Source of the DNA: Candidatus Bathyarchaeia archaeon
GTDB lineage: Bacteria; Patescibacteriota; Microgenomatia; PFEM01; JAFGMK01
Direction: 5' to 3'
Assembly (NCBI GenBank): GCA_035529595.1
Contig: DATKWK010000023.1
Coordinates: forward strand, 78,517-142,516
DNA: 64,000 bases
Part shown: positions 1,004 through 52,169 of the stretch, in pieces
Layout of the letters: every line of letters starts with the position of its first letter
Numbering within the stretch: the stretch's first letter is position 1
Notes under the pieces: model-generated
Seen by the model: the letters and a program-made list of their open reading frames with translations, nothing else
Databases searched by the model: none
What the model was told of the DNA's origin: nothing
Translations under genes and position numbers: made by a program

Positions 1004-2461
1004 ATGACTGAAACTGAGACAAGAAGAGACGTCTCGCAAATACCTTCCCGACCTGATTTTGTTTCTCTTTTGCAGCAATCGGGGCGATTTGAGCAAGCAG
1101 AAGGAGAAATAATCATTAATTCTATTAATGCGAGAATGGAGTTAGTAGAAAGAGAATATGGGGAGAACCCGCTTTTAGCTCGAGTAGCGACAATAATGAC
1201 GGGAGCGATTGATTATGCAAGGGCCTGTGCTCTAAAGTTGCAGCCAGAGAGAGTTGATGAACATGGGGATGCGCTTACTGTAGGTGATGTTACCACTAAA
1301 AGAGATATTGAGATTTATCGGAGAGTCGTTGAAGTCTTAGACAGTACCGGTATGAAATTTGTTATGCGGGGGGAAATTGAGGCTAAGTTGACTAAAACGG
1401 ACGGAGAATGGGAAATAGAGGATCTTAGGGCAGACAGCACAGGTAAAAAAATAACAAGTTCCGGTACTAGTAATTGCCCTGAAGGAGAAGCAGACTGGGT
1501 GTTTGTTATCGACCCTCTTGATGGAAGCGTTAATGAGACGCAAGGTAAAAAATCGGGGACAGTATTGGCTTGTGCTAAGTATGGTGGCAAGTTAAAGATG
1601 AGAGATCTCGAGATTGGTGTGGTAGCCGACTATTTGGCTGGCAGAAATGGAAATGAACGAGGGACTCAGAGATGTGTTGGGGTTAGGGGCTTAGGAGCCA
1701 GGCTTTTAAGAGCAAGAGAAATTGAAAGAATAACATTACCTGAACCTTCGCCACTTGACGAAGTACCCACATTTGGTGCCTATACAAAGTTTCCTTGGCA
1801 GGAAGAGCAACAGAAATTATTAGCGCGAGTTGTCTCTGAGGTTCTTGGGCAGAAGCAACAGAGAAGCACAGATGCCACTGCAGCCTGTTCAGTTGCCGTA
1901 GCTACCGGGGAGTTTCGGACTCATTGTGACGCAAGAGAAGCGACGAAGCTTTGGGATACGATTGCTTCTTGGGTAGTCATTAACGAAGTCACCGGGTTAA
2001 AGATGACAGATTTATTTGGTTTTTCCTTCGATGAGGCAGTACTTTATGATCCTGCTAACGAGAAATATGCGAAGGATGGGGGAATAAACAGAGCGATTGG
2101 GAAGCATTTTGTAATTGGTAGAGAAGAAGATAATTTGGCAATCACGCGGGGGTATTGTGAAGCGATTTTTTTTGGTCTAAGAGCTTCCTTATTACCTGCA
2201 AAGCGGCTAGAGTATTGGCATGATGCTGGAGAAATATTCGCTCGCATTTTGGAGCACAGAATTGATATGGCTGAAGAAGACTACGGAATTATAACAAGAT
2301 CCGATGTAGAAAGGTTTGTTTGTATAGTTAGAGATTTTTATTGCCGTGACTTTAAACCTCTGGCTGATACGGGTAGACCCGAGGTAGTTATTCCTTACCA
2401 GGGGGGGCTACGGGTGTTTGATCAGATAACTGGAGATCGTATAAAACGGATAAAAGGTTAA
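1004..2461 (+). CDS. Inositol-monophosphatase/FBPase-fold (IMPase superfamily) protein with about 150-aa N-terminal extension; GC clearly higher than flanks
   Basis: WVFVIDPLDGSVNET (DPxDG[ST] metal-binding motif) and downstream LWDTIASWVVINEVTG (WDxAA-like motif). About 48 % GC versus about 33 % in flanks. Confidence 0.5.
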   Translation: MTETETRRDVSQIPSRPDFVSLLQQSGRFEQAEGEIIINSINARMELVEREYGENPLLARVATIMTGAIDYARACALKLQPERVDEHGDALTVGDVTTKRDIEIYRRVVEVLDSTGMKFVMRGEIEAKLTKTDGEWEIEDLRADSTGKKITSSGTSNCPEGEADWVFVIDPLDGSVNETQGKKSGTVLACAKYGGKLKMRDLEIGVVADYLAGRNGNERGTQRCVGVRGLGARLLRAREIERITLPEPSPLDEVPTFGAYTKFPWQEEQQKLLARVVSEVLGQKQQRSTDATAACSVAVATGEFRTHCDAREATKLWDTIASWVVINEVTGLKMTDLFGFSFDEAVLYDPANEKYAKDGGINRAIGKHFVIGREEDNLAITRGYCEAIFFGLRASLLPAKRLEYWHDAGEIFARILEHRIDMAEEDYGIITRSDVERFVCIVRDFYCRDFKPLADTGRPEVVIPYQGGLRVFDQITGDRIKRIKG

Positions 2462-2515
2462 CAAATATACCAAAACCTCATTCAAAAACCAGATAATTAA
2501 TGAATTATTTTTCAT

Positions 2516-2560
2516 GTAGCAGGGGCTGGTGAACTTTGTTAGAACCTATTTTAGAGAATA
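2516..2560 (+). repeat. Cassette-boundary repeat copy 2
   Basis: GTAGCAGGGGCTGGTGAACTTTGTTAGAACCTATTTTAGAGAA. Confidence 0.8.
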
Positions 2561-2634
2561 AGCGCGTAGTTTATCAACTTCTTTGAGTCACAATGATTTT
2601 GCTTATGGTTAAATCTTCCTGATATAATCGTTTT

Positions 2635-3171
2635 ATGACTGGCAAGAGCGATAAATACCAGACGATTGATACTTATAATAAGACAGCAAAGATTCATTCT
2701 CAAAAGTTTGAGAATTACGGAGCAAGAATTGAAGATATTGAAAAGGCCTTTTCTTACATTGATAAATCAAATCCTAAAGTAATTGACATTGGTTGCGGTG
2801 ACGGCAGAGATGCAAAAGAGATTACTAAAAAAACTGATGATTATCTTGGCATTGATTTATCGGTTGAGCTGATTAAGATTGCCAGAAAAAAAGTTCCCCG
2901 AGGAAATTTTATAATAGCCGATTTTGAAACCTTTGAATATCCGCAGGGAGTAGATATAGTGTTTGCCTTTGCTGCCATACTCCATTCAGGCAGAGGAAGC
3001 GTAAAAAAATTACTGAAGAAAGTTTATCGATCCCTTACTCCTGGAGGAATTTTTTTTATCTCAACAAAATATGGTTCTTATCGTAGGAAGGTGATTGATA
3101 GAGACGGGCCGAAAGTAAATTTTCTTTATCGGCCTGAGGATATAATAAAAATGTCACCGGCTTGGGCTTGA
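2635..3171 (+). CDS. Class I SAM-dependent methyltransferase (small, 178 aa)
   Basis: VIDIGCGDGRDAKEI (motif I, GxGxG), followed by an acidic residue after beta-2 and the DIVFAFAAILH motif. Confidence 0.65.
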   Translation: MTGKSDKYQTIDTYNKTAKIHSQKFENYGARIEDIEKAFSYIDKSNPKVIDIGCGDGRDAKEITKKTDDYLGIDLSVELIKIARKKVPRGNFIIADFETFEYPQGVDIVFAFAAILHSGRGSVKKLLKKVYRSLTPGGIFFISTKYGSYRRKVIDRDGPKVNFLYRPEDIIKMSPAWA

Positions 3172-3391
3172 GGCAGTTTATCAAGATACTCGAATCTTGA
3201 GAGGCCAGAAATGGTTGACGATTATTCTTAAAAAGAGTCAGTTAAGATGAAGTTATTTTGATTATGAAGCAAAAAACATTTGATATAATAAATTTTAATG
3301 ACTGAAGATTTTGGGCAACTAAACATCTTTTTTAGAAATTTAAGGGTATTGATATTTGTGATACGATGATAACAATCTTGTCTCTTGAGAG

Positions 3392-36648: not shown

Positions 36649-37959
36649 ATGATCAAACGAATGAAAATTTCTCCTTTTATGTTTAGTCGGGAAGAAAAGA
36701 TCAAGGGTAAAATCTTAATTTTATCTCAGGAAATTTACCCGCAAGTTTGTATTGGCGGATTAGGAAAGTTCGTTGCTGGAATCAGTCACGGTATGCAAGA
36801 CCTCGGTTGGGAAACAACTGTTTTCTTGCCCGAAAATCAAAATCCGGTTTATCTTCCCTATTATTTACCGGAAGCAAAAGCAAGAAGTAGAACCTTGGTA
36901 AAAAAAGCTTTGAGCTGGTGCTGCAATCACCTTTGGTGGCCAAATTGGCTTTGGGTTCAAGATTGGGAAGGTGCTTATCAGGCCGAAGTGTGGCGGCAGC
37001 AAGCGAGGGGAGTTTCTCAATCGGAAACTAAGATAATTTGGACAATTCACAGTCCGCTGACAACCGCCGGTGCAGGCTATAATTATGGTTACCAAGATTT
37101 TAACCAGCCAGATGAGCCGATTGATTGGGGTGATGATTTCTTTGATTTTGCCGCTTTGATTGAAAAAGGCATCTCCAACGTTGACTTAATCAGCACTGTT
37201 TCGTTTTCGTTTGCCAGGAAATTAACCAGGTGTGAATTATTTTCTCAGGCAGATCAGATTTGTGGGATTAATAATGGAATCGATAGTCGGGAATGGGACC
37301 CGTATCACGATAAACAAATTAGCTTTTGCCTTAAAGACAGCTGGCCGGAATTTAAGTTGGTCAACAAAAGAGTCCTTCAGAGAATTTTCGGCTTGCCGCA
37401 GAGGAATGAGCCGGTTTTTGCCTTTGTTTCCCGGTTAGTACCGCAAAAAGGTATCGATCTATTGATAGAAGTTTTACCTGGAATATTGGCTAAAAATCGG
37501 ATTCAGTTGATAGTTGTTGGCCAAGGCTTAACCAGGTACCAATCCTTTTTTGCCCGATTGAAATCCGATTTTCCACAAAAACTTGGCTTATGTCTCCAAT
37601 CAGAATTTCGATTGCCTCATCAAGTTTTTGCGGGTGCAGATTTTCTGATTTTGCCTTCATTTTCTGAACCGTTTGGTATTGTTGTTGCTGAGGCGCGCCA
37701 ATACGGAGTTATCCCAATAGTAAGCGACGTCGACGGCTTAGCAGATCAAGTTCGAAATGATATTGACGGCTTAACCTTTGAAACAGGTAACGTTAATTTA
37801 TTAGCCGGTAAAATCTATGAAGCATTGAGGCTTTTTGGTAGTTCGTCTTATTGGACTCTAAGTAGTAATGGCCGGAATCGAGTTGAGGACTGGCTAGAAA
37901 TTGCGGCACGATATGAGTTTTACTTGGCAGGAGCAGATCAGCAAAGGTATCCCTCTTGA
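36649..37959 (+). CDS. GT4-family (GT-B) glycosyltransferase
   Basis: N-terminal ...EIYPQVCIGGLGKFVAGIS... (glycogen-synthase-like G-rich loop) and C-terminal LPSFSEPFGIVVAEARQYGVIPIVSDVDGLADQV (E-x7-E motif region). Start at the first ATG after the topA stop. Confidence 0.7.
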   Translation: MIKRMKISPFMFSREEKIKGKILILSQEIYPQVCIGGLGKFVAGISHGMQDLGWETTVFLPENQNPVYLPYYLPEAKARSRTLVKKALSWCCNHLWWPNWLWVQDWEGAYQAEVWRQQARGVSQSETKIIWTIHSPLTTAGAGYNYGYQDFNQPDEPIDWGDDFFDFAALIEKGISNVDLISTVSFSFARKLTRCELFSQADQICGINNGIDSREWDPYHDKQISFCLKDSWPEFKLVNKRVLQRIFGLPQRNEPVFAFVSRLVPQKGIDLLIEVLPGILAKNRIQLIVVGQGLTRYQSFFARLKSDFPQKLGLCLQSEFRLPHQVFAGADFLILPSFSEPFGIVVAEARQYGVIPIVSDVDGLADQVRNDIDGLTFETGNVNLLAGKIYEALRLFGSSSYWTLSSNGRNRVEDWLEIAARYEFYLAGADQQRYPS

Positions 37960-40204
37960 AGGCGGTCTCAGAAAACGTTGTTTTCTGGTTAAAGAAGGCC
38001 GTGAGAAACTGGTTTATTCACTTTGGCCCACGGACAGTTTGTCCGAAGAAAAAATTAAGCAGACGATTAAATGGGAGCTGATGGCAAGGGCGAGGGGTGT
38101 ACCGGCTAGGCATTGGCAGAAGCTAGACGGATCTTGGCTTAAAAAAATAAGATTTGAGAGGAAAATATATTGGTTAGGCATTGGGAATTACCTTCCGGGG
38201 CAAATATATTATGATTTAGCGCCGGGACAACTTTACGCTGCCGGTCGAAAGTTAGCTTTTCTTCATCAGTCTTTCCGCCGCTTAAATAATAAAACACTTC
38301 TCCATTTAGATTTTGCTCGGGGCAATTTGCTTTTTAATAAAAAAAAAGAAGTCGCCGGTATTTTAGATTTTGAAGAAGCCGGCTGGGGGATAGTCGAGAA
38401 AGATTTAGCTTGCAGTCTTTCTTTTTTCGTTGTTGATAACGGGCAATTGGCAGATAATCAAATTTGGGGAAATTTTTTAAAGGGCTATACTGATGGAGGT
38501 GGCGATTTTAATTATGATAAGATAAAAAGATTCTATTTTCATTATTTAAAAGTGAGAGCAGAGGAAAACAATCAGAAAGCCTTTTTGTTGCTGGCTCGTG
38601 AGCGCCTAAGGAAAATTCAAGAGCGAATTAAAGCTAAACTGCTGAAAAAAACTGACCTAGAACAGTTTTTGAAAAAACATCAGGACAAGAGAATAGTTTT
38701 TTTAGTGGGAGCGTTTGAGCTGCTTCATTGGGGACACCTTAAATTCTTGAAAAAAGCTAAATCTTTAGGAGATACTCTGGTAGTTGGAGTTGCTTCTGAC
38801 CAGTCAAGGCGGCGCCTCAAAGGAGAACCCTATCCTCTTATCAGTGAACGGACGCGAGCAGAAACATTGGCCTATTTTGACAGTGTCGATGCGGTGGTAA
38901 TAGTGACTGAGGATTCGGTAAGGAAAGAACTCCAATATCTAAAACCAAAGATTTTCTATGCGATTGCTGACGATTGGAAACAGGGAATTAGAAAAATGGA
39001 GGAAGCGGAATCCGTCAGAAGCTGGGGTGGAAAAGTTATCAAGACTCTTTATCTTTCCCCACGAATTTCTTCTTCTCAAATGACTGAAAAAGTCGCTCTT
39101 TTAAAAATAAAACAGGTTCTCTTTGGTAAAAAAATCCGTCAGCCAATGCTTAAACTGAGAAAAAATCGGCGAATTCCGAAAGAAGTCAAATTTCCAGACC
39201 TGGAAAAACTCGAAAAAAGACTGCATCAGCAAAATAAAACAATCGTTTTTGCGAGCTTAACAGCTGACCTTTTTCATTTAGGGCATGCTCGGTTTATTCA
39301 AAAAGCTAAAAGTTTAGCTGATTTTTTGGTAATTGGCGTTCCCAGCAATGAAAGCGTCACTGCCTTAAAAGGGCCTGGCCGGCCGATAATCGACGAGAGA
39401 GCGAGAGCACTGGTTTTATCAGAACTTAACTTTGTTAATAAAGTGGTTATATTTGATGAGCGGACGGTCTTTGGCTGTTTACAGAAACTCAAACCGGATG
39501 TTTTTTTTACAGTTAAGGAAGATTGGAATACCGGTTTGCTTAGCTCGCCTGAAGCACATCTGGTAAGATCTTATGGCGGTAAAATTGCCCGCTCTGAAAG
39601 GCAAGCGCCCTATCTCTCTGCTTCAAAAATGATTGACAAGGCGGCCGGAGAAATAATCCAAAAAAAGTTTTCCGCTTTAATTAAAACCGCGGCAGAAACG
39701 CCGATTCTTGATGCCGATGGTTTTGATCCTCATCATCCGCAAGTTCAGTTAGCAGCTAGGGAGAAAGGTTTTTATGATCAAGTTTTAGCTTCGGTAGCTA
39801 AAAGAGGTAAATGTGTTTTTTGTGACCTTAAAGAAAAATATATCATTGCTTCTCGGGATGGTATTGTTTTAACGGTAGCCCTTTTCCCCTATATTGACGG
39901 CCACCTTTTGGTTATTCCTCGCCGGCACCTATTGACTATTGACCAGCTTAACCCTGGAGAAATTAGCATGATTTTTGATATGGTGGGGAGAGGTAAAAAG
40001 ATTTTGAATCAAGGGTTGGGGATAGAAAATTATTGGATTATTCTTCGGGAAGGGAATGGCATTAAAGCTGGAAAGTCGGTTGATCATTTACATTTTCATC
40101 TGATTCCTTACAATTCGACTGTGGTTAAGATGGGCAATAAAAAGTTAACTTCAACGCCGCTTAAGATGGCTCAAACTTTAAAAAAACAATGGAAAAATAT
40201 TTAA
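37901..40204 (+). CDS. Four-domain fusion: choline/ethanolamine-kinase-like (APH fold) + tandem TagD/ECT-like cytidylyltransferase domains + C-terminal HIT domain
   Basis: Kinase-like: ...HLDFARGNLLFNKKKEVAGILDFEEAGWGIVEKDLA (Brenner/APH motif region). CT domain 1: VFLVGAFELLHWGHLKFLKKAK...ADDWK...RISSSQM (HxGH, RTEGISTT-like). CT domain 2: IVFASLTADLFHLGHARFIQKAK...KEDWN...LSASKM. HIT: DHLHFHLIP (HxHxHxx). Confidence 0.65.
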   Translation: MRHDMSFTWQEQISKGIPLEGGLRKRCFLVKEGREKLVYSLWPTDSLSEEKIKQTIKWELMARARGVPARHWQKLDGSWLKKIRFERKIYWLGIGNYLPGQIYYDLAPGQLYAAGRKLAFLHQSFRRLNNKTLLHLDFARGNLLFNKKKEVAGILDFEEAGWGIVEKDLACSLSFFVVDNGQLADNQIWGNFLKGYTDGGGDFNYDKIKRFYFHYLKVRAEENNQKAFLLLARERLRKIQERIKAKLLKKTDLEQFLKKHQDKRIVFLVGAFELLHWGHLKFLKKAKSLGDTLVVGVASDQSRRRLKGEPYPLISERTRAETLAYFDSVDAVVIVTEDSVRKELQYLKPKIFYAIADDWKQGIRKMEEAESVRSWGGKVIKTLYLSPRISSSQMTEKVALLKIKQVLFGKKIRQPMLKLRKNRRIPKEVKFPDLEKLEKRLHQQNKTIVFASLTADLFHLGHARFIQKAKSLADFLVIGVPSNESVTALKGPGRPIIDERARALVLSELNFVNKVVIFDERTVFGCLQKLKPDVFFTVKEDWNTGLLSSPEAHLVRSYGGKIARSERQAPYLSASKMIDKAAGEIIQKKFSALIKTAAETPILDADGFDPHHPQVQLAAREKGFYDQVLASVAKRGKCVFCDLKEKYIIASRDGIVLTVALFPYIDGHLLVIPRRHLLTIDQLNPGEISMIFDMVGRGKKILNQGLGIENYWIILREGNGIKAGKSVDHLHFHLIPYNSTVVKMGNKKLTSTPLKMAQTLKKQWKNI

Positions 40205-40662
40205 GATTAGCTATAAATGAGGCAGAGAAATCCGGTTGCCGCCGAGCTAAACGGGGTGCCGTGATTATCAAGAATGGTCAAATAGTAAGTCGAGCCCATA
40301 ACCTGGTTTTTCCCAAAAACAGCTTTTGCGAGAAACGCGGTTGCCTGCGGGACAAGTTACGTTTGGGTTTAGGTCAAAATCTTGAACGCTGCCGCTCAAT
40401 TCATGCTGAAGCTTTGGCAATTTGCCGGGCGGCCAGCAAAGGAATTTCTTTGTCTAAAACAGAAATCTTTATGACCGGCCAGCCGTGTATCAACTGCGCT
40501 AAGTTAATCTATGCTTCGGGGGTCAAAAAAGTTTATTATCTTGATGTTTACGGAGATCGAACCGGGGCTATCTTCTTAAACAAAATGGGCGTCTTATGCC
40601 AACGTACCGGAATAGAAAATGATCAGCCTAAAAGGAGAATCAGGGATATTACCAGCCAATAA
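40189..40662 (+). CDS. dCMP deaminase (ComEB-like cytidine/deoxycytidylate deaminase zinc-binding)
   Basis: HAEALAI (HAE) ... TGQPCINCAKLI (PCxxC). Confidence 0.8.
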   Translation: MEKYLRLAINEAEKSGCRRAKRGAVIIKNGQIVSRAHNLVFPKNSFCEKRGCLRDKLRLGLGQNLERCRSIHAEALAICRAASKGISLSKTEIFMTGQPCINCAKLIYASGVKKVYYLDVYGDRTGAIFLNKMGVLCQRTGIENDQPKRRIRDITSQ

Positions 40663-40689: not shown

Positions 40690-42126
40690 ATGAAAAAGAA
40701 ATGGCCGGCTTATTTCAACGAGAGACTTTGGTTGGTTAACCCCAGTCAGGGATATATCGGTATTGTTACCTGCTGGACCGCAAAAGAACAGGTTGCTCCC
40801 CGAATGCCCAGCCAAGTAGCTTTAGTCGGCCAGCTTTATACCAAAGCCGGGATCGAGTTTATCATCCGTAATCTTTGGGCAAATCCGCAAATTTCCTCTC
40901 TGGTAGTTTGCGGCCAGGACTTAACCGGAAGCGGGCAGGCTTTAGTTGAATTTTTTGAAAGAGGGACTATCGATAACCAAAGACCATTTTTTGAAGAGCA
41001 GATACCCAGGAGAGATCTCGTTCTTATCCGGAAAAAAGTCGGCTTGGTTTCTCTCTTGGGCGAGGTAGATCCTGACTTAATTGCGCGAAAAGTTGCTGGC
41101 TTGAAATTTTCTCCTCCTTTTGCTTCCCGGCCTAAATTTTTTCCGCAGTCTCAATTGATGGAGGCCTTTCCTTCCGAGCCTTCGCTGTTTCGGGTTGAAG
41201 CCAAAACAATCGGTGAAGCTTGGCTGCAAATTTTGGGATTGATTTTGAAATTCGGCCGCCGACTTCCGAGGATCTATGTTTACGGAGGCTATGAAAGGGT
41301 TCTCCTAAATTTATCGGTCTTAATAACTGATGAGGATATAAAAAAACCTAAATTATGGCCCTATTTTCAGTTTAATAAGGAACAGCTGAAAACGTATTTC
41401 CGGAGTTTCTTCTCTCCTGAGCGTGGTGGTGAGGCCTATACCTATGGGGAACGACTATTTGCTTATCCGTCAGAGGGGAATGTTGTTGACCAAGTGACTA
41501 AGATGGCTAACAAATTAAAAAGCTTTCCCTATAATAAGGGGGCGTTAGCGGTTCTTTGGCAACCGGCTATCGATAATTTTCCGATCCGTAAGCCCTGGCG
41601 AACACCATGTTTGACTTTAGTCCAGGGGATATGCCTGGGTGATGAACTCTGTTTGACGGCTTTTTTTCGTGCCAATGATATGTTTGCCGCCTGGCCTCAA
41701 AACTGCTTTGCTTTAAGGAAACTGCAAACAGAGATTGCCAAAAAAATCGGCAAAAAAATCGGCGCTTTGACGACGATATCTCATACTGCCTTTATTGATG
41801 AGGCTGATTTGCCTAAAGCACAAAAGGTTATTAATGACAACCAGCCGTTGTTCTGCCAATTAGATCCGCGGGGAAATATAGCGGTTACGGTTGAAGGGAA
41901 AATTATCGTTAGCCGTCATTTTTCGCCGGAAGGAAAACTCTTAGCAGAATACCGCCAGAATGGTTTGGTACCGAAGGCAGCCTTGAAATTGGAACGAAAG
42001 CTTATCTCAAGCCAGGTTATTTCCAGAGTTGACCATGCCCTGGATATCGGCGAACACCTGGGCCGGGCCGAGGATGCCGTTAAGTTAGGATTAAAGTTTG
42101 AACAAGATCGGCAACTAAAGAAATAA
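40690..42126 (+). CDS. Thymidylate synthase (ThyA)-family enzyme with about 170-aa N-terminal extension and C-terminal tail (478 aa); dUMP-utilising methylase or hydroxymethylase
   Basis: ThyA-like blocks: YGERL (cf. YGxQWR), VDQVTKMANKLKSFP...ALAVLWQP (cf. IDQ..LK.DP.SRR..SAWNP), PCLTLVQ (catalytic Cys in the PCH context), FRANDMFAAWPQN (cf. YQRSxDxxLGxPFN; Asn retained), SHTAFI (cf. GDxHxY). The phosphate-binding RR pair appears replaced (NK). Confidence 0.6.
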   Translation: MKKKWPAYFNERLWLVNPSQGYIGIVTCWTAKEQVAPRMPSQVALVGQLYTKAGIEFIIRNLWANPQISSLVVCGQDLTGSGQALVEFFERGTIDNQRPFFEEQIPRRDLVLIRKKVGLVSLLGEVDPDLIARKVAGLKFSPPFASRPKFFPQSQLMEAFPSEPSLFRVEAKTIGEAWLQILGLILKFGRRLPRIYVYGGYERVLLNLSVLITDEDIKKPKLWPYFQFNKEQLKTYFRSFFSPERGGEAYTYGERLFAYPSEGNVVDQVTKMANKLKSFPYNKGALAVLWQPAIDNFPIRKPWRTPCLTLVQGICLGDELCLTAFFRANDMFAAWPQNCFALRKLQTEIAKKIGKKIGALTTISHTAFIDEADLPKAQKVINDNQPLFCQLDPRGNIAVTVEGKIIVSRHFSPEGKLLAEYRQNGLVPKAALKLERKLISSQVISRVDHALDIGEHLGRAEDAVKLGLKFEQDRQLKK

Positions 42127-42299: not shown

Positions 42300-43385
42300 A
42301 TGAATATTGTTGAAGTTTTAAGAAAACCGGAATTAACAACCGGTGGTGTTTATCGGTTAGAAGCTGGCATCTTGCCTGATCCAGTTCAAGTTCAAATTTT
42401 AGCTGATATTGAAACTTTCACTAATTCAAGATTTAATTGGCAGGAATTTGTTCAAGAAGCCGGAGAGAGATGGGCAGATTACATTCCTGTGGGGGATAGA
42501 TTTCGTACCGATCGGCCGACTGATACGGAGCTTGAAGAGATTACCTGGAGCCATTTGGTAAGCGGAGTCTATTCTAATCAACAAGCCACAATTGAGGTAA
42601 TAAAGAAAGCTTGGGATGTTCAAGCCGGTCATGAAACCGGTAGCCTAAGTCTAGGTCGCCATTTAGTAGTGATTGGATTAATGGGAACCGGAAAAACAGA
42701 GTTGGCTAAAGCCTTGCACGGCGGAAATCCTTTTTATTCAAAACTCTTGCTGGAACAATGGGAAGATAATAGTAGTCTTGCCTATTTCTATGATTTATTA
42801 GAGACATATTTAGATCCGCTTTGCGCTCAAGCCCCGGATTTCCAGGATTTAAATAGCTTATTAACTAATGTCCAAGGATCAGCTCAGGGCCATTTTGCCG
42901 CCTGTAAATTTATTCAAACATTAAATGGGATGTCTGATTTAGGTAATGGTTTTGATTTAGTTCAGGATACCAACTTGAGTGTTACTGATATGGTTTTTTT
43001 TAATAGCCAGGCGATGTTGAGATTAGCCAGTCAAGAAAACATAGAGGCTTATAAAAGAGACAATGCCTATCGGCAAAGATTGACTCCTCCCTATCTGCGG
43101 TTAGGGCATGACCGATCAATGATGGTTTACCTTTGGGCGCCACTGTCGGAAATTAGAGCCAGAATTGTTCATACTAGAGGCCGGGAAATCGAACGGCAGA
43201 TCCCTTGGGGATATCTTGAACTCTTATACTTAAATACCCTTCAATGCGTATTAGCAATGAGTCAGGCCGGAGCGCCGGTTTTAGTCGTCGATGCCCGGGC
43301 CGATTTTCGGTCGTTCAGAAGCGACCGGTCACTTATAGTCCGTGATATTTGGGAAAAAATGGGTGGTATCAGGGGCCAATCTTAG
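42300..43385 (+). CDS. Deoxynucleoside-kinase (dNK/dCK/dGK) family P-loop kinase with about 130-aa N-terminal extension
   Basis: P-loop VVIGLMGTGKTELAKAL; DRS motif (cf. ERS); Arg-rich lid IRARIVHTRGREIERQIPWGYLELL (cf. dCK RIYLRGRNEEQGIPLEYLEKL). Confidence 0.6.
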   Translation: MNIVEVLRKPELTTGGVYRLEAGILPDPVQVQILADIETFTNSRFNWQEFVQEAGERWADYIPVGDRFRTDRPTDTELEEITWSHLVSGVYSNQQATIEVIKKAWDVQAGHETGSLSLGRHLVVIGLMGTGKTELAKALHGGNPFYSKLLLEQWEDNSSLAYFYDLLETYLDPLCAQAPDFQDLNSLLTNVQGSAQGHFAACKFIQTLNGMSDLGNGFDLVQDTNLSVTDMVFFNSQAMLRLASQENIEAYKRDNAYRQRLTPPYLRLGHDRSMMVYLWAPLSEIRARIVHTRGREIERQIPWGYLELLYLNTLQCVLAMSQAGAPVLVVDARADFRSFRSDRSLIVRDIWEKMGGIRGQS

Positions 43386-43484: not shown

Positions 43485-44801
43485 ATGATTGATAAGGAAG
43501 TTTTTGATCTTATTCGTAAGGAAGAGAAGCGCCAAGAAGAGGGCTTGGAGCTGATTCCCTCTGAAAATTATGTCTCCAAAGAAGTCCGGCAAGCCTTGGG
43601 CTGCATTTTGACTAACAAATACTCCGAGGGTTATCCGCGCAAGCGCTATTATGGCGGTAACGAAGTTGTTGACGAAATCGAAAGCTTAGCTATAAAACGG
43701 GCTAAAAGACTTTTCAAAGTGCCCCACGTTAATGTTCAGCCCTATTCCGGATCGCCGGCTAACTGGGCGGTTCATGGTGCTCTTTGCCAACCGGGAGACA
43801 TAATTCTTTCACAACATCTCTCCCACGGCGGCCATCTCAGCATGGGCCAGGAAGCTAATCTTTCATCAAAATTTTTCCATGCTTATTATTATCATTTAAC
43901 TGCTGACGGCAGTGTTGATTTTAAGGAGTTGGAGAGTCTGGCCAAAAAAATTAAGCCCAAAGTTATTTGGTCTGGCGGAACTGCCTATACTATAAAGTTT
44001 AACTTCTTAAAATACGCCCAGATAGCCGATCAGGTAGGTGCTTATTTTGTGGCCGATATTGCTCATATTGCCGGTTTAATCATCGGCGGTATTCACCCCA
44101 GCCCGGTTCGTTATGCTCATCTGGTGACCACTACTACCCATAAAACCCTGCGCGGTCCGCGGGGAGGGATGATTATGGTGACCAAAAAAGGTTTGAAAAC
44201 TGATCCTGATTTAGCACGAAAAATTGACCGGGCGGTTTTTCCCGGCCTCCAAGGTGGGCCCCACGACAATCAGATAGCTGCTTTAGCCATTGCCCTAAAG
44301 GAGGCGTCGACTGTTAAATTCAAGGAATACACGCGGCAGGTTGTTGTTAATGCCCGAGCATTAGCGCGGATTCTCAAGAGAGCTGACTTAAAGTTAATTG
44401 GAAACGGTACCGAAAACCACATGATTTGGGTCGATTTAACCGATCAAGGAATTGATGGTTGGCAAGTTCAAGTTGCCTTAGACGTTCTCGGAATCTCAAT
44501 CAATCGCCAGACGATTCCTTTTGATCTGCGTCCGGCTTATTACCCAAGCGGTATCCGACTGGGTACGCCGGCAGTGACTACCCGGGGAATGAAAGAGGCG
44601 CAAATGAGACTGATCGGCGATTGGATTATCCAGGTAATTAATATTGTCCGAGAGATTAAATGCGTGGGGTTGGGAAGCTCCGACCGGGAGGAAGACCAGG
44701 CGGCGCGGAAAGAATTTAAGGAAAAAATTAAATTGCATCCCCATCTTCGGCATCTGCAAAAAGAAGTCAAGTCTTTTTGTTTAAACTTCCCGATTCCTTA
44801 A
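43485..44801 (+). CDS. glyA: Serine hydroxymethyltransferase
   Basis: LELIPSENYVSKEV..., TTTTHKTLRGPRGGMI (PLP-Lys region). Confidence 0.9.
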   Translation: MIDKEVFDLIRKEEKRQEEGLELIPSENYVSKEVRQALGCILTNKYSEGYPRKRYYGGNEVVDEIESLAIKRAKRLFKVPHVNVQPYSGSPANWAVHGALCQPGDIILSQHLSHGGHLSMGQEANLSSKFFHAYYYHLTADGSVDFKELESLAKKIKPKVIWSGGTAYTIKFNFLKYAQIADQVGAYFVADIAHIAGLIIGGIHPSPVRYAHLVTTTTHKTLRGPRGGMIMVTKKGLKTDPDLARKIDRAVFPGLQGGPHDNQIAALAIALKEASTVKFKEYTRQVVVNARALARILKRADLKLIGNGTENHMIWVDLTDQGIDGWQVQVALDVLGISINRQTIPFDLRPAYYPSGIRLGTPAVTTRGMKEAQMRLIGDWIIQVINIVREIKCVGLGSSDREEDQAARKEFKEKIKLHPHLRHLQKEVKSFCLNFPIP

Positions 44802-44809
44802 ACAATCCT

Positions 44810-45664
44810 ATGGTATATATTTTTGACGGTAAAAAAGAAGCCGGGGAAATTAAAGCTTCTTTAAAAAAGAAGATTTTTAAGCTTAAAAAAAAGCCGGTTT
44901 TGGAACTGGTTCTGGTCGGCGATGATTCGGTTAATGAGAGTTACTTAACACAACTGCAAAAAATAGCCCTAGAGTTAGAAGTTAGGCTTTCTATTCATCG
45001 ATTTGGAAACTGTGTCAGGTGGGAAAAAATGGCAGAATATTTTACCAGGAAAAATAATAATGAAGAGATTAAGGGGATTTTGGTCCAAATTTCACCCAGT
45101 TGTTCTCTTTTTAGTAAACGGGAGGAGGTTATTAATCTGCTAAAGCCGGAGAAAGACAGCGACTTTTTGGGAGAAATTTTTTTCAAGGATAAAAATCGTC
45201 TCCCCTCAGTTTGTCAGGCGGTACTTATTGCGATTAATAAGGCCAGTGAGGTTTTAAGCTTTCATTCGCAATGGGTAAATACTTTAGTTATCGGTAATCA
45301 GGGTTTTTGGGGCAGAAGAATTCAGCAAACACTAATTAATCAAGGATTTGAAAACGTTGCCGGTATTGACAAAGAGACAATCGATCTTAAACTTGCTTGT
45401 ACTGAAGCTGATATTATTATTTCCTGTACCGGTCAGCCGGGATTAATTAAGAGACCAATGGTCAAAAAAGGAGCGGTGGTTATTGATGTTGGTGTTTCTA
45501 TTCCGGAGCACCGGTATAATTCCGGTCCCAGAGCGGATCGGGTAATTGGAGATGTTGACTTTAGATCAGTTTCACGGGTGGCCGGCTTTATCACCCCTGT
45601 CCCCGGCGGCATCGGGCCATTGAGTACGATTTTGGCGTTTAAGAATTTAGTGGGAAGAAATTAA
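44810..45664 (+). CDS. folD: Bifunctional 5,10-methylene-THF dehydrogenase/cyclohydrolase
   Basis: N-terminal ...LVLVGDDSVNESYL...; C-terminal ADIIISCTGQPGLIK...GAVVIDVGV...GDVDF...ITPVPGGIGPLSTILAFKN. Start set at the MVYIFDG ATG just after the glyA stop. Confidence 0.8.
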   Translation: MVYIFDGKKEAGEIKASLKKKIFKLKKKPVLELVLVGDDSVNESYLTQLQKIALELEVRLSIHRFGNCVRWEKMAEYFTRKNNNEEIKGILVQISPSCSLFSKREEVINLLKPEKDSDFLGEIFFKDKNRLPSVCQAVLIAINKASEVLSFHSQWVNTLVIGNQGFWGRRIQQTLINQGFENVAGIDKETIDLKLACTEADIIISCTGQPGLIKRPMVKKGAVVIDVGVSIPEHRYNSGPRADRVIGDVDFRSVSRVAGFITPVPGGIGPLSTILAFKNLVGRN

Positions 45665-45761: not shown

Positions 45762-46253
45762 ATGGTAGAGAGAGATAATGGAGAGACAGAAGCAGTAGTT
45801 GGGAGAAGGGTTCGTTTGGCTGAAGATATATTTTGGGCTTGGGCACAAAGTGATCTTTACGGTGAGACTGTGTATCTGACCTTAACTGACGGACAGCGTC
45901 TCGCCCTTGATATTGAATATGGTCTTTGGGAGGACATACTGGATGATGTTTTGGATTGGGAAAGAGAAGAAGATGATGAAGATGAGTGGAAAACACTTGC
46001 TGAACGGGAAGGAATTGAAGCTAAATTACACGAGTTGGGTTTGAATAAAGATTTTTATTTTTTTTTCATTATTAGTGATCCGACGAGAGAGGAAGGAGAA
46101 GTTGGTCATTGTTTTGGCATTTATTCTGATCGGCAAACGGTTGGGGTTTTAAAAAGATTAGAAAAAAAATATGATTATTGTTTTGGAATCGATAAAGTGA
46201 TTCCTCGTGATATAGTAGATGCCTTTTGGCAAGCTTTAGCTAGCGCTGACTAG
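45762..46253 (+). CDS. Acidic hypothetical protein (163 aa), paralog of 47782-48237
   Basis: Shares LTLTDGQRLALDIEYGLWEDILDDVL / LALTDGRQLALEIGYVSWDDMLYSVL and C-terminal ...GIDKVIPRDIVDAFWQAL / ...GVDGVIPDEIALALEIAL blocks with the paralog. Confidence 0.5.
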   Translation: MVERDNGETEAVVGRRVRLAEDIFWAWAQSDLYGETVYLTLTDGQRLALDIEYGLWEDILDDVLDWEREEDDEDEWKTLAEREGIEAKLHELGLNKDFYFFFIISDPTREEGEVGHCFGIYSDRQTVGVLKRLEKKYDYCFGIDKVIPRDIVDAFWQALASAD

Positions 46254-46335
46254 AAAAATCTGCTCGAAAAAAAGTTGAATAGCCTTCATTAATTTAACCT
46301 GCCCAAAGAAAAAGTTAATAGTTTCTTAAATAAAC

Positions 46336-47745
46336 ATGCCAAGAAGTCTGGAGTTGCGTGATTTGTTTTGGCGGCAAGAATTTTTATATCCTAATGGAGA
46401 CTGCTTTGACTGGTTTGGAATAGGACCGTTAAGGCACAATGATGAGTCTGTTATAGCCGTTGAAACGCCTTTTGACACCGGAAGGCGATCAATCCTTGAT
46501 CTGCCGGTGGCGGCTGATTTGCATGCTTTACAAGAGGGATTAGATAGTTTTAAGCCAAGTCGGGAAGTATTAGGGAGGATAGCGAAACTTTACGGGCAGA
46601 TATTTGAACATTTAGAGAAAAACGGCCACGAAGTTCAACTAAAAACTGATTTATGTGCAAGATTATGGGATCTATACCATCAAATACATTACGAAGATTA
46701 TGCTTTTTCATACTCGGGCGCTCTTGGGTGTAGTACTTCTTATGCTTGGGGTTTAGTCCATGCTTGTGCTCAAAGGCGAGCCTTAATTAGATCAGCCGGT
46801 TTGAAAGACGATCAACTGGCAAAATTAGTCATTGATGAGTGGCTTCTTTACGAAAGACTTCATTTGCCTCCTTCAGCTGATGATGAAACTCAGGCTTGTG
46901 GAATTTTAGGCGGCCGAAGAGATAATTTAGCTCTTTGGCACCAAGCTTGGTTGCCGTCTATTTATTTTGACCAGACTTTAGGCCTTTATCGGGTTGAAGG
47001 ACTGAGTATTACTCAGGGTTTAATCGAAAGATGCTATCGAAATTTTCTGCCGATCCCCTGGATTGGTTTTGAAGGTCTTGACAAAAGCGGTAAAGATACC
47101 CAGGCTGATATTTTGGTGAAGTTTTTGGAGGATGTTTTAGGTTGGCAGGTTCTTCCTCAGAATTTTCCGACAAATTTAAAAATTGGACAGATGATTAAAG
47201 CGGCCTTAGGAGGCGAGATTACTTTTGATAACCGGGCGATGCAAAAACTATTTCAAGCTGATCGGGCTGATTGGCGCTGGCAGGCAGAAATGGGTAAAAT
47301 AACCGAAGGTCGAGCTTGTTTGGTCACCAAAAGACATTCGGCCTCCGGTATTGCTTATGGGGCTGAAGATTATGCCAGTTTACTAAGATATGTTGTTGAG
47401 CATTTCATGCTCGGCTGGGCCGATTTAACGATTTTTATTGATGTTCCTGAAGATGAATGTTTAAGAAGACTTAAAGGCCGGCCGGAAATGTACGAGAGGA
47501 GAGAAAAATTGGCAGGAGCAAGGACGAACTATTTGGCTCTTTTAGATATCTTACCGCATTTTGTCCGGCTTGAGGGGATGAATTCGGATGGTAGTCCGAA
47601 ATCGCCGGAGGTTATTTTCCGAGAAACAGTGGGAATCCTGGTTTCACAGATGCCTGCTGAGAAATTAACCCCAAAACAAAAAGAGAAAATAGTTGGTAGT
47701 CTTGATAGTTGGATTGCTGATAATAAAGACCGGTTCGTAGTTTAA
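46336..47745 (+). CDS. Two-domain protein: unknown N-terminal domain (about 250 aa) + C-terminal thymidylate-kinase-like domain with atypical P-loop (GLDKSGKD)
   Basis: IGFEGLDKSGKDTQADIL (cf. Tmk FEGIDGAGKTTQ) and downstream FQADRADW (cf. Tmk DR motif). Confidence 0.5.
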   Translation: MPRSLELRDLFWRQEFLYPNGDCFDWFGIGPLRHNDESVIAVETPFDTGRRSILDLPVAADLHALQEGLDSFKPSREVLGRIAKLYGQIFEHLEKNGHEVQLKTDLCARLWDLYHQIHYEDYAFSYSGALGCSTSYAWGLVHACAQRRALIRSAGLKDDQLAKLVIDEWLLYERLHLPPSADDETQACGILGGRRDNLALWHQAWLPSIYFDQTLGLYRVEGLSITQGLIERCYRNFLPIPWIGFEGLDKSGKDTQADILVKFLEDVLGWQVLPQNFPTNLKIGQMIKAALGGEITFDNRAMQKLFQADRADWRWQAEMGKITEGRACLVTKRHSASGIAYGAEDYASLLRYVVEHFMLGWADLTIFIDVPEDECLRRLKGRPEMYERREKLAGARTNYLALLDILPHFVRLEGMNSDGSPKSPEVIFRETVGILVSQMPAEKLTPKQKEKIVGSLDSWIADNKDRFVV

Positions 47746-47781
47746 TATTACTGTACTGATTAATATTTTTTATCATTATGG

Positions 47782-48237
47782 ATGATTTTTGAAAACGACC
47801 GGACAAATTATGATAAGTTGTCTACTGAAAGAAGAATACCCTTAGCCCAATACATGTTTCATATGTTAGCCCGAGATGGATTAACCGAAGAGATCTTTCC
47901 ATTAGCTTTAACTGACGGACGACAACTTGCTCTTGAGATTGGATATGTTAGTTGGGATGATATGCTGTATTCTGTTTTACAAGCGGGTGAGGAACGAGAT
48001 AGGCTTCTGATACAACTAGCTGAACTTGGTTTAGATCAACAATTTGTCTATTTAATTTTCGTGCAAGCTGCGCCAGAGGGAAGAGAACCACAGGAGGCAA
48101 CTTGTTACATCGATCGAGAAACCTTTAACGTTTTACATCCTTTTGAAAAAGAATATCAGTGGGATTTTGGAGTTGATGGGGTAATTCCTGATGAGATAGC
48201 TTTGGCTTTGGAAATAGCCTTGCAGTCCCGAATTTAA
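47782..48237 (+). CDS. Acidic hypothetical protein (151 aa), paralog of 45762-46253
   Basis: See paralog entry. Confidence 0.5.
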   Translation: MIFENDRTNYDKLSTERRIPLAQYMFHMLARDGLTEEIFPLALTDGRQLALEIGYVSWDDMLYSVLQAGEERDRLLIQLAELGLDQQFVYLIFVQAAPEGREPQEATCYIDRETFNVLHPFEKEYQWDFGVDGVIPDEIALALEIALQSRI

Positions 48238-48339
48238 TTCTGAGTTTAATGAAGCATAAATCTTTTTGCTACCATGACCTAGCGTCTGCTAGCAAAACAA
48301 ACTGGTAGTTTATAACCTAAGCGATATTATTTAACTGAA

Positions 48340-49224
48340 GTGGCCAAACAAGAAGCCGAATCAAGATTTGATTTCGTACCTAGCCCAGAAATTCTTTATC
48401 TCGAGAGCCCGGAGCAACTTCAGGACAGAGAGATTTTTGTCTATCGGGTACATGATCCTGAACCGATGTTTGCGCGCCAGGTAGTGGAGAGGCTTTGGGG
48501 AATAGCAGGTGAAGTAAATCCAGGAACTGAAATGCCTATTAAATTTTACCGGAGAATGCCTCATGGAATTAAAAGCGATTCGGTTCATGACGAGTTCAAT
48601 ATATCTTTGGCAGTGCCGATTGAAAATCAATTAGCGGAAGCATTAGGAATTTGTCAGGGATTAGCTTTTATTGATCGGAAGAATTCCGATCTTCCGTGGA
48701 ATTTAGTGGTTGAAAGCCCGGTGATCGCCTCAAGCGAAGGAGACGCTAGTCATTTTTTATTGATTGATCTTGATGGTAAGGTTAATAGCCTAGATCAGTT
48801 CGTAATCGAAAATAGTTTTAAAGCAGCCGGTTTTTCCGGGTTTTTATTGGTTAGCGGCGCCTCTTATCATTACTGGTCTGATTTTACTGTTTCGGCGGAT
48901 AGTCTGCCGGCTTTTTTGGGGACTGCGGCTGCGGCTTTAACACCGCAAGTTTCCGATAATGATCGTTTATTGTCGATTGCTTTTCGAATGTCAGTTTGCC
49001 AAAATTTGGCAGAAGGTCAGGAATTAGCTTCTCAAATTCTTAACCGGAACAGCGCTCTTTTTATTCCTTCTTCAGGCAGTGGTTTTAAAAGCGGGAGTTT
49101 TTTTGATTTTCGCTGGGCTTGTCACCGTTTATTAGCCGGGAAATTAGCTTTGAGGGTAAGTTCGGACCGATATCCGCAAGAACCGATATTGATTTCCGAA
49201 TTAACGGCCAGAAGCTTTTCATGA
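48340..49224 (+). CDS. Hypothetical protein (294 aa)
   Basis: No recognisable motif. Follows the acidic paralog in the same way the 469-aa protein does. Confidence 0.4.
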   Translation: MAKQEAESRFDFVPSPEILYLESPEQLQDREIFVYRVHDPEPMFARQVVERLWGIAGEVNPGTEMPIKFYRRMPHGIKSDSVHDEFNISLAVPIENQLAEALGICQGLAFIDRKNSDLPWNLVVESPVIASSEGDASHFLLIDLDGKVNSLDQFVIENSFKAAGFSGFLLVSGASYHYWSDFTVSADSLPAFLGTAAAALTPQVSDNDRLLSIAFRMSVCQNLAEGQELASQILNRNSALFIPSSGSGFKSGSFFDFRWACHRLLAGKLALRVSSDRYPQEPILISELTARSFS

Positions 49225-49241
49225 ATGACGAAAAGTAAGAG

Positions 49242-49342
49242 TTCAGATTTACTGGCACACTTGGTCATGCTGAACTTGATTCAGGATCTACATAGATTCC
49301 GTGTCAAGCACGGAATAACGGGATTGTGTCAAAGAATCTGAG
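49242..49342 (+). mobile_element. MITE-like structured repeat, copy B
   Basis: TTCAGATTTACTGGCACAC...GATTCCGTGTCAAGCACGGAATAACGGGATTGTGTCAAAGAATCTGAG; about 90 % identical to copy A. Confidence 0.75.
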
Positions 49343-49425
49343 CGGTTACGACGAAAACAGATTATGGTTAATATTCTCTTTATTTGATAAGATAAATAAT
49401 TAGAGTTTACTTGGAGGGCAGGCAG

Positions 49426-50043
49426 ATGAAACCAAATCCTTATCCCGGGTTTTTTGTTGTTATCGAGGGCCTTGACGGTTGCGGAGCTTCAAGCCAAATT
49501 GAGCCGGTCGCCGAAGCTTTGCGGATCGGGAATAAGGAGGTAACCACTACCAGTGAACCGACTGATAATATTTTAGGAGGTCTGCTTCGCGGTGCTTTGA
49601 CTGGTGTCTACCGCTTGCCGCCTGCTTCTCTTCAGCTTCTTTTTGTGGCCGATCGTCTTCATCATTTAGACCGTTTAATCGAGCCGGTTCTAAAAAAAGG
49701 CGAACTGGTTTTATGCGATCGTTATTTTTGGTCAACTATTGCTTATGGTTCGATTGATTTGGATTTCAACTGGTTGTTGGAAATTAACCAATACTGTTTA
49801 CTGCCTGATCTTTCGATATTTCTTAAAGTTGACCCCTTAACCTGTTTTCAACAAATCAAAAAAAGCCGGTTTGGATTAGAGCTTTTTGAAAACCGCCAGA
49901 AACTGGACCAAGTCTGGCGGATCTATGAAAAACTGGCTCGAAAATATCCCAGAGAGATTGTTTTTGTTGATGGTGAACGAGTTTCTTCTGAGGTTAAAAG
50001 TAACATTCTAAAAGCGATAAAACACCATCCGAAATTCTCCTGA
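49426..50043 (+). CDS. Thymidylate kinase-like protein with degenerate Walker A (GLDGCGASSQ; P-loop Lys and Thr absent)
   Basis: FFVVIEGLDGCGASSQ (cf. Tmk IEGLEGAGKTTQ); LLFVADRLHH (DR motif); CDRYFWSTIAYG (cf. DRYxxSSxAYQ). ATG 49426 preferred (RBS GGAGGG 7 nt upstream) over the TTG at 49411. Confidence 0.55.
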   Translation: MKPNPYPGFFVVIEGLDGCGASSQIEPVAEALRIGNKEVTTTSEPTDNILGGLLRGALTGVYRLPPASLQLLFVADRLHHLDRLIEPVLKKGELVLCDRYFWSTIAYGSIDLDFNWLLEINQYCLLPDLSIFLKVDPLTCFQQIKKSRFGLELFENRQKLDQVWRIYEKLARKYPREIVFVDGERVSSEVKSNILKAIKHHPKFS

Positions 50044-51701: not shown

Positions 51702-52169
51702 ATGGCGGGAATCATAATCGATCAAATTAAAAACTTAAGAAAAAAAACCGGAGCTGGTGTTATGGATTGCCGTCGGGCTCTGGAGAATAGTGGCGGGGAC
51801 GAAAAAAAGGCGCTTGAATGGCTGAAGAAGAAAGGTATCGCTAAAGCCGCCGAAAAAGGGCAGCGGGAGGTAAAAAGCGGTCTGGTAGTTGCTTATACTC
51901 ATGGCGATGGTGATATCGTAGCGGTAGCGGAAATTGCCTGCGAAACCGATTTTGTGGCCAAGAATAAAGAATTTAAAAAACTGGCCAATGAAATTTGTCT
52001 GCAGGTGGCGGCGATGAAACCCAAAGATATTGACGAACTGATGAAACAACCTTATATTAGAGATGAAGCGAAATCAGTCAAAGAACTGGTTACCGAGGCA
52101 ATTGCCACGATCGGAGAAAACATTAAAGTGCGGCGGATTGCCCGGTTTGAACTGGGAGAAAAATTTTAG
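51702..52169 (+). CDS. tsf: Elongation factor Ts (short form, 155 aa)
   Basis: IKNLRKKTGAGVMDCRRALENSGGDEKKALEWLKKKGIAKAAEK (UBA-like N domain) ... Confidence 0.85.
   Translation: MAGIIIDQIKNLRKKTGAGVMDCRRALENSGGDEKKALEWLKKKGIAKAAEKGQREVKSGLVVAYTHGDGDIVAVAEIACETDFVAKNKEFKKLANEICLQVAAMKPKDIDELMKQPYIRDEAKSVKELVTEAIATIGENIKVRRIARFELGEKF

Follow-up and report, generated by a model that had tools for sequence, protein, structure and literature searches.

Thymidylate kinases (TMPKs, also named Tmk) are P-loop kinases that phosphorylate dTMP to dTDP, and the lysine of their Walker-A motif is treated as a defining residue. The human and yeast enzymes are type-I TMPKs, and in the Plasmodium falciparum enzyme (2wwf; motifs GLDRSGKSTQ and YFPNR) position 4 of the P-loop is basic and FP replaces EP. 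In the WNK ("with no lysine") protein kinases, which are unrelated to TMPKs in fold and chemistry, the canonical catalytic Lys is missing and a relocated Lys has been demonstrated. In Sulfolobus acidocaldarius, the adjacent genes Saci_2019 (cPPK3) and Saci_2020 (rPPK3), both annotated as Tmk, encode an alpha2beta2 complex in which an inactive subunit activates the catalytic one; the EP motif, which binds TMP, is missing from the PPK3 proteins, rPPK3 has also lost the Arg of the DRX motif, a polyphosphate cleft is found, and an exopolyphosphatase gene is located alongside (bioRxiv 10.1101/2024.08.28.610084). Here, we describe a 64,000-nucleotide stretch of contig DATKWK010000023.1 from an ultra-small, uncultured bacterium (positions 78,517 to 142,516; hereafter the window), where an island of genes for dTTP synthesis encodes a stand-alone Tmk-like protein without the Walker-A Lys (Tmk210), a second Tmk-like domain fused to an orphan N-terminal domain (X-Tmk) and two small, very acidic paralogous proteins (acid1 and acid2). 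Like the Sulfolobus locus, the window holds two neighboring Tmk-family genes, of which one has degenerate catalytic motifs.

The pathway itself is ordinary, and what is new is the lysine-less Tmk clade and the kinase-associated acidic domain; our literature search yielded nothing on Tmks that lack the Lys, the acidic family or PF24387, the family of a neighboring protein. Our preferred explanation, which we hold tentatively, is a lineage-specific expansion of a dTTP-synthesis island of the candidate phyla radiation (CPR) that comprises the lysine-less Tmk, X-Tmk and acidic accessory subunits. This island lies between dprA-topA and rpsB-tsf-frr in CPR-type bacteria, and in the expanded form found here ordinary thymidylate chemistry would be run with three unusual protein parts. 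A more far-reaching version is rather unlikely as a whole, i.e., that the lysine-less clade is active and performs the sole dTMP-to-dTDP step of CPR bacteria, with Arg or Lys at lid position 153 holding the ATP phosphates, and that the acidic domain is a regulatory subunit of kinases. If true, it would offer a new catalytic solution in a well-studied fold and a new layer of control on the dTTP supply.

All genes in the region from 37.9 to 55.3 kb are located on the + strand, and the open reading frames (ORFs) of the original prediction, a model's reading of the letters alone, were reproduced at their coordinates. Those of the main components are:

45762-46253, + strand: acid1, 163 amino acids, upstream of X-Tmk, paralogue of acid2
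46336-47745, + strand: X-Tmk, 469 amino acids (gene callers start at 46363, which gives 460 amino acids)
46336-47037, + strand: orphan helical domain at the N-terminus of X-Tmk
47038-47745, + strand: Tmk domain of X-Tmk, with the P-loop GLDKSGKDT at 47074-47100
47782-48237, + strand: acid2, 151 amino acids, 36 nucleotides downstream of X-Tmk
49411-50043, + strand: Tmk210, 210 amino acids, TIGR00041 (gene callers start at 49426, which gives 205 amino acids)
49468-49497, + strand: P-loop of Tmk210, GLDGCGASSQ, with Ala26 at the Lys position

Tmk210 scores 128.2 bits against the dTMP kinase model TIGR00041 (cut-off 83.25) and 119 bits against PF02223 (cut-off 27). It resembles the Thermotoga maritima TMPK (3hjn) from end to end, including the EPT, ADR and DRY motifs, the lid and the C-terminal adenine loop, and is found in a dTTP operon. 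The two proteins align without gaps in the P-loop (E=5.6e-20), where Ala26 of Tmk210 takes the place of the Walker-A Lys and the following Thr is replaced by Ser; the pattern GxxGxGK[ST]T with its invariant Lys is not found in Tmk210. The segments SEPT, FVADR, CDRYFWS and the lid KKSRFGLELFE, which contains R153, are kept and are conserved across the clade. The original prediction of a Tmk-like protein without P-loop Lys that retains its DR and DRY blocks is therefore confirmed, and by sequence and position Tmk210 is the orthologous, syntenic Tmk of the island. Sequencing or frameshift errors, which had been named as a possible cause of the degenerate P-loops, are ruled out because three independent assemblies are identical (those from ENA and Logan, built from other runs, agree with the window at 100% over 20.5 and 13.5 kb) and because both P-loop variants are seen again in homologues of other organisms.

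Relatives were sought in JGI metagenomes with patterns of the DRY and WLLEIN blocks, i.e., independently of the P-loop; 26 loci were returned, and the gene context in loci other than the window is limited to about 6 kb on each side. The P-loop is visible and the identity is 35% or more in 21 orthologous loci, of which 13 lack the Lys and 8 have it. Three further lysine-less cases are the window, a Peribacteria locus (L012) and locus L013. The residue at the Lys position of the lysine-less proteins is S, A, L, C, E or T, while both groups keep EGLDGxG, [ST]TQ, EPT, ADR, DRY, the PD block, the lid sequence ELFE and the DGER loop. The ratio of nonsynonymous to synonymous substitution rates is 0.06-0.11 among four lysine-less orthologues. 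As judged from these sequences, the loss of the Lys is clade-wide and the protein is strongly constrained.

A candidate for a compensating residue is found in the lid, where position 153 is Arg or Lys in all 14 of the lysine-less sequences compared to 3 of 11 lysine-bearing ones; in the latter, basic residues tend to be found at positions 141 and 156. In the mechanism that we consider most likely, the Walker-A Lys was lost in the Tmk210 clade and its position drifts, while the glycines of the P-loop, the site for dTMP, the lid and the adenine loop remain conserved. Tmk210 would then still bind nucleotides and most likely still phosphorylate dTMP, with R153 of the lid taking over the binding of phosphate. 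The parallel to the WNK kinases is that a key Lys is gone and the rest of the active site is kept, although here R153 is identified by a correlation among sequences.

Several observations weigh against such a catalytic role. The Walker-A Lys is held to be essential in P-loop kinases, and natural P-loops without it usually belong to non-catalytic subunits. The correlation at position 153 comes from few clades that are not phylogenetically independent, and a rough neighbor-joining tree interleaves the two states. In addition, the lysine-less Tmk has a lysine-bearing one directly beside it in the window, in L013 and in L025; such a neighbor is also present in L009 and L027, in both of which the sequence of the first P-loop is truncated. 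These points lead to the main alternative, a real possibility that we nevertheless rank below the preferred explanation, in which the lysine-less Tmk would bind dTMP without catalysis and, as a regulatory or scaffold subunit, would form a hetero-oligomer with a live Tmk paralogue (here X-Tmk), the acidic proteins being further subunits. The six different residues at the Lys position indicate that this position is unconstrained, the strong purifying selection fits a regulatory role equally well, and the adjacent, Tmk-annotated PPK3 genes of Sulfolobus provide a precedent (bioRxiv 10.1101/2024.08.28.610084). A second adjacent Tmk is seen in about 3 of 11 lysine-less loci compared to none of the 8 lysine-bearing ones, a difference that is not statistically significant. 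The features of the PPK3 pair, i.e., loss of EP and of the DRX Arg and an exopolyphosphatase gene beside the Tmk-like genes, are not found in the window: rPPK3 lacks both the DRX Arg and the EP motif, whereas Tmk210 has both EP and DRY and has lost the P-loop Lys, X-Tmk keeps the Arg, and the neighbors are thymidylate and folate genes.

Pseudo-enzymes normally erode several catalytic motifs. In the lysine-less Tmks, on the other hand, nothing but the Lys has been lost: glycines and Thr of the P-loop, DR, DRY, the Arg in the lid and the adenine loop all persist. Furthermore, in most islands the Tmk210 orthologue is the sole Tmk within the visible context, beyond which a second Tmk may lie, standing among genes for thymidine kinase (TK), deoxynucleoside kinase (dNK) and ThyX (e.g., topA-TK-dNK-Tmk[GLDGSGSSTQ]-rpsB in L028/29). 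Because the other catalytic motifs are kept and the protein is the sole local Tmk in most islands, we lean slightly toward residual or compensated catalysis. The non-catalytic role is nearly as likely and stays close because of the rule for lysine-less P-loops, the adjacent live paralogues and the Sulfolobus PPK3 case. Of the readings offered in the original prediction, a regulatory or pseudo-kinase subunit and non-canonical phosphate coordination fit the data on this protein about equally well. Either the fold would catalyze phosphoryl transfer without the Lys, which would matter to enzymologists and for kinase design, or a hidden gap or hetero-oligomer in dTTP synthesis would exist in many ultra-small bacteria, which would matter for host dependence and metabolic reconstructions. 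Annotation pipelines call these proteins "dTMP kinase" despite the absence of the Lys, and in the source records the proteins discussed here appear as "dTMP kinase" and "hypothetical protein".

The second Tmk-family protein differs from Tmk210 in its P-loop. Residues 245-404 of X-Tmk match PF02223 (E=1.8e-21, 77 bits, cut-off 27), so that the Tmk-like C-terminal half with GLDKSGKD is as originally described, while the score against TIGR00041 (75 bits) falls under the cut-off of 83.25; the best PDB matches of the kinase domain are TMPKs. The Walker-A Lys253 is kept, Asp254 takes the place of the usual Ser/Thr, FPT stands for EP and KRH for DRY. Like the P. falciparum enzyme, X-Tmk is basic at P-loop position 4 and has FP for EP; in contrast to type-I TMPKs it carries an Asp directly after the Lys, has lost the Asp of DRY and has an N-terminal domain of 235 amino acids. 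Five homologues share this domain together with the kinase domain (conserved residues W138, L140, H142, A145, Q146, R194, L198, W201, H202 and W205 in the N-terminal domain). Across the family the block S-G-K-D-T-Q is invariant (GKDT in 5 or 6 members), and the residue at P-loop position 4 varies among G, K and R, with K in the window and R in P0003 and L009. Because GKDT is invariant, position 4 is basic also in the P. falciparum enzyme and phage Tmks carry GKDTQ, the original prediction overstated the "altered Walker A" of X-Tmk: the motif reads as a type-I-like subfamily signature that retains the Lys. We therefore regard X-Tmk as the fusion of an orphan helical domain to a second Tmk, which is type-I-like, has an intact P-loop of the form GK(D)T and is probably an active kinase.

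A scan of the GTDB species representatives for X-Tmk returned one distant Peribacteria Tmk. Stand-alone Tmk-like proteins with GLDGSGKDTQ, and with V-R-S for DRY, are found on putative phage contigs of IMG/VR (L042-L048), and this combination, which is also that of the X-Tmk kinase domain, appears to mark an uncharacterized Tmk subfamily common to phages and CPR bacteria.

The two acidic proteins, acid1 and acid2, are 38% identical over 148 amino acids (BLASTP, E=1e-24) and share the blocks L-T-D-G-x-x-L-A-L-x-I-x-Y-x-x-W and G-x-D-x-V-I-P. With isoelectric points (pI) of 4.28 and 4.29 and net charges of -22 and -16, respectively, they are the most acidic two of the 55 ORFs of the window; both their paralogy and their acidity had been recognized in the original prediction. 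An exhaustive profile search of 1.84 billion (1.84e9) representative proteins yielded only 11 relatives, and a word-indexed search with the acidic protein matched only itself. All family members are acidic (pI 4.0-5.2, net charge down to -28), and one, P0008, is a tandem double copy of the domain. An AlphaFold2 model of acid1 (pLDDT 84.9) displays an acidic alpha/beta domain. The suggestion that the proteins might belong to a well-known family is not borne out, as acid1 has no match in Pfam, NCBIfam, PHROG, PADLOC, PDB or BFVD; viral or defense-system signals were looked for in the family and none was found. From the profile and database searches, this is an orphan family and represents a new, very rare kinase-associated domain.

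The genomic context ties the family to thymidine (dT) and dTMP kinases. The surroundings could be read for seven members, and five of these, from four organisms, adjoin or are fused to such a kinase, which is of three types. In L007 the domain is fused to the C-terminus of a TK (P0015, PF00265) in the order dprA-topA-cytidylyltransferase-HIT-dCMP deaminase-MtrA/ThyA/PterinBD-TK::acid-rpsB. In L009 a Tmk210-like gene is followed by an X-Tmk (50% identity) and, after a 1-nucleotide gap, by the acidic gene. In L013 the order is lysine-less Tmk, a small ORF, canonical Tmk and, after 8 nucleotides, the acidic gene. Within the window acid1 precedes X-Tmk, and acid2 follows it by 36 nucleotides, i.e., in the position that is kept in relatives. 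The genes 3' of the family members, on the other hand, all differ (X-Tmk, the AEP-like gene discussed below, an unknown 266-aa protein, rpsB, FTCD_N and a PurD-like gene). The conserved unit is thus a kinase followed by an acidic domain (L009, L013 and the L007 fusion) rather than an acidic gene followed by a large gene. A duplicated two-gene module, as originally proposed, does not hold, since the acidic gene alone is duplicated and the two downstream genes, X-Tmk and the AEP-like gene, are unrelated (hhalign probability 0.05%).

From the fusion to TK and the recurrent proximity to kinases, we infer that the acidic domain binds dT and dTMP kinases as a regulator or adaptor, i.e., that acid1 and acid2 are accessory subunits of lysine-bearing thymidine or thymidylate kinases. 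The tandem form P0008 and the two copies in the window suggest that the domain works as a pair, and acid1 and acid2 probably flank X-Tmk as a hetero-pair. Two observations speak against this assignment. The other two members with context have no adjacent kinase and stand beside folate and purine genes, a formiminotransferase gene (L008) and a PurD-like gene (L014), on contigs of which most are shorter than 3.3 kb. Moreover, the AEP-like gene directly follows acid2, which could serve that protein instead. The domain is a testable candidate for a regulator of thymidine-nucleotide kinases, for which the TK fusion and the gene order name the partners. As to the original suggestion that small acidic proteins act as DNA mimics or inhibitor partners, the proteins do look like protein partners, but the partner would be a thymidine or thymidylate kinase and no phage or DNA-mimic signal is seen.

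Some of the ORFs beside the acidic genes were compared further. The 134-140-aa small ORF of L013 shows no similarity to the acidic domain or to the N-terminal domain of X-Tmk. Downstream of the acidic gene in L009 lies an orphan ORF of more than 266 amino acids (2412-3209), and upstream of that in L008 a C-terminal fragment of more than 151 amino acids (3-458), both without a Pfam match. These two are unrelated to each other and show no similarity to the AEP-like protein; the L009 ORF is likewise unlike the ORF that follows X-Tmk in L004.

The remaining genes of the region (all on the + strand; assignments from Pfam/NCBIfam where marked P) define the pathway in which these proteins reside:

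37901-40204, + strand: 767-aa fusion of an APH domain, two cytidylyltransferase domains and a HIT domain (P)
40189-40662, + strand: dCMP deaminase (P)
40690-42126, + strand: MtrA-ThyA-pterin-binding fusion, the ThyA-like gene (P)
42300-43385, + strand: dNK-like kinase with an N-terminal extension (P)
43485-44801, + strand: SHMT (P)
44777-45664, + strand: FolD (P)
48340-49224, + strand: AEP-like protein, 294 amino acids, PF24387
50114-50671, + strand: FTCD_C cyclodeaminase, which closes the island (Pfam and synteny)
downstream of FTCD_C, + strand: rpsB-tsf-frr-rseP-proS

The same arrangement is seen in relatives, where the order is dprA-topA-[dCMP deaminase, ThyA-like or ThyX, dNK, TK, dUTPase or dCTP deaminase, Tmk, SHMT, FolD, FTCD_C]-rpsB-tsf-frr-rseP-proS. 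This synteny extends over more than 20 related loci, in which the island contains varying combinations of the listed genes, with either a tandem-fused ThyX or a ThyA-like gene. The 478-aa ThyA-like fusion is composed of an MtrA-like domain, an archaeal-type ThyA and a pterin-binding DUF4346, and scores 112 bits against TIGR03283 (cut-off 175). Because the ThyA-like gene and ThyX alternate at the same island position, the fusion would behave as a thymidylate synthase, which argues against a modified-base pathway; the fusion appears to be an alternative form of thymidylate synthase that may carry its own module for handling pterins. The locus is a dTTP-synthesis island with ordinary thymidylate chemistry.

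This result bears on a second alternative, which is very unlikely, namely that the inserted genes (dNK-like, acid1, X-Tmk, acid2 and AEP-like) constitute a pathway for a modified pyrimidine nucleotide, with X-Tmk as a modified-dNMP kinase whose product is used by the AEP-like protein. The dTMP-site motifs of X-Tmk (FPT, KRH) are non-canonical, although type-I TMPKs such as that of P. falciparum normally have FP and a basic residue at P-loop position 4. Among the nearest stand-alone relatives of X-Tmk are Tmk-like proteins of phages in which GKDT and VRS recur, and X-Tmk homologues are also found alone in unrelated contexts. The ThyA-like gene, in which three parts are fused in an unusual manner, stays under the TIGR03283 cut-off, but it swaps with ThyX. 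The five inserted proteins have pI values of 4.3-5.6, compared to more than 8.8 for most immediate neighbors; values below 5.7 are found for 16 of the 55 ORFs, and four acidic proteins in a row are no statistical anomaly in the window, so that the acidity is also not a signal of horizontal transfer. The AEP-like gene is found in L010/L011 without acidic genes or X-Tmk. A ThyA hydroxymethylase with DNA-level kinases or transferases, as in phage-type thymidine hypermodification, is not found at the locus, nor are glycosyl, amino-acyl or other hypermodification-type transferases or phage matches, PHROG giving generic Tmk and ThyA only. With the alternation of ThyA-like and ThyX genes in an ordinary dTTP pathway, a kinase for a modified dNMP, as had been suggested for the Tmk-like proteins, is not favored.

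The original prediction placed a large unknown gene after each acidic copy. For X-Tmk this is correct for the orphan N-terminal domain, while the 294-aa protein that follows acid2 matches PF24387 ("AEP-like", i.e., like archaeo-eukaryotic primases) with 38.5 bits (cut-off 27, E=1.2e-9, residues 124-277). Candidate catalytic motifs, read by eye and kept in both known members, are LIDLDG (D143, D145), SGASYH (S172-H177) and FFDFRW (D256). As read from the sequence, their order (DxD, SGxxxH, a later acidic residue) is that usual for archaeo-eukaryotic primases; the resemblance thus lies in Pfam score and motif order, whereas the sequence has no match to solved AEPs in PDB. AEPs are not known to occur alongside Tmk-like genes in islands of nucleotide metabolism.

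The one close homologue of the AEP-like protein (70% identity; L010 and L011) is encoded between FolD and FTCD_C-rpsB, next to a Tmk-like gene and without an acidic gene or X-Tmk. From this gene order, the AEP-like protein is a separate, recurrent neighbor of Tmk-like genes that stands outside any duplicated module. Immediately upstream of the homologue (L010 524-1576, L011 214-1266) lies a gene for a 350-aa Tmk-like protein with the P-loop GPDGTGKTTQ and a C-terminal extension of about 150 amino acids, a second Tmk/AEP-like pairing; the extension (in L010) has no similarity to the acidic domain or to the N-terminal domain of X-Tmk.

A role of acid1 and acid2 as DNA mimics, or as inhibitors of a DNA-binding protein such as the AEP-like enzyme, with the kinases nearby by chance, is very unlikely: the two proteins are small and very acidic (pI and charge as above), their fold has no known counterpart and acid2 lies immediately upstream of the AEP-like gene, but the AEP-like orthologue of L010/L011 has no acidic neighbor, a dT/dTMP kinase is directly upstream of, or as TK fused to, four members whose downstream genes all differ, and neither a DNA-binding target, a mobile element or structural likeness nor a viral or defense-system signal was found.

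A few further observations concern the island and its surroundings. The 767-aa fusion directly upstream of the dCMP deaminase gene combines one kinase domain of the APH type, two RfaE domain II-like cytidylyl/adenylyl-transferase domains and HIT, and at the same place in L007 the transferase (with an ATP-cone) and HIT are separate genes. The dNK-like kinase (PF01712, E=3e-10, pI 5.2) sits where L007 has the TK::acidic-domain fusion; its N-terminal extension of about 120 amino acids has no similarity to the acidic domain or to the N-terminal domain of X-Tmk. In the islands of L017-L025 (e.g., L018 4572-5999 and L025 3585-5429) ThyX is 460-615 amino acids long with two PF02511 matches, i.e., tandem-fused. 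A promoter and terminator scan for the operon boundaries performed no better than on shuffled sequence.

The metagenome-assembled genome is labeled "Candidatus Bathyarchaeia archaeon" at NCBI (records HUW21648-HUW21662). The window encodes bacterial S2, EF-Ts, RRF, RseP, TopA and DprA and is syntenic with CPR-type contigs, one of which is named Peribacteria, and because of this gene content and synteny the archaeal label looks wrong. The EF-Ts (51702-52169) has merely 155 amino acids, about half the usual bacterial length, and is likewise short in relatives (about 150 amino acids in L024-L029). Finally, a small P-loop kinase of about 185 amino acids (AAA_17/18) adjoins the dCMP deaminase gene in many islands (L018 2290-2835, L019-L021, L023, L026 and L034); its P-loop, GLSGTFGAGKDT, is presumably similar to that of the T4 gp1 dNMP kinase, and the protein might supply dNMP kinase activity.

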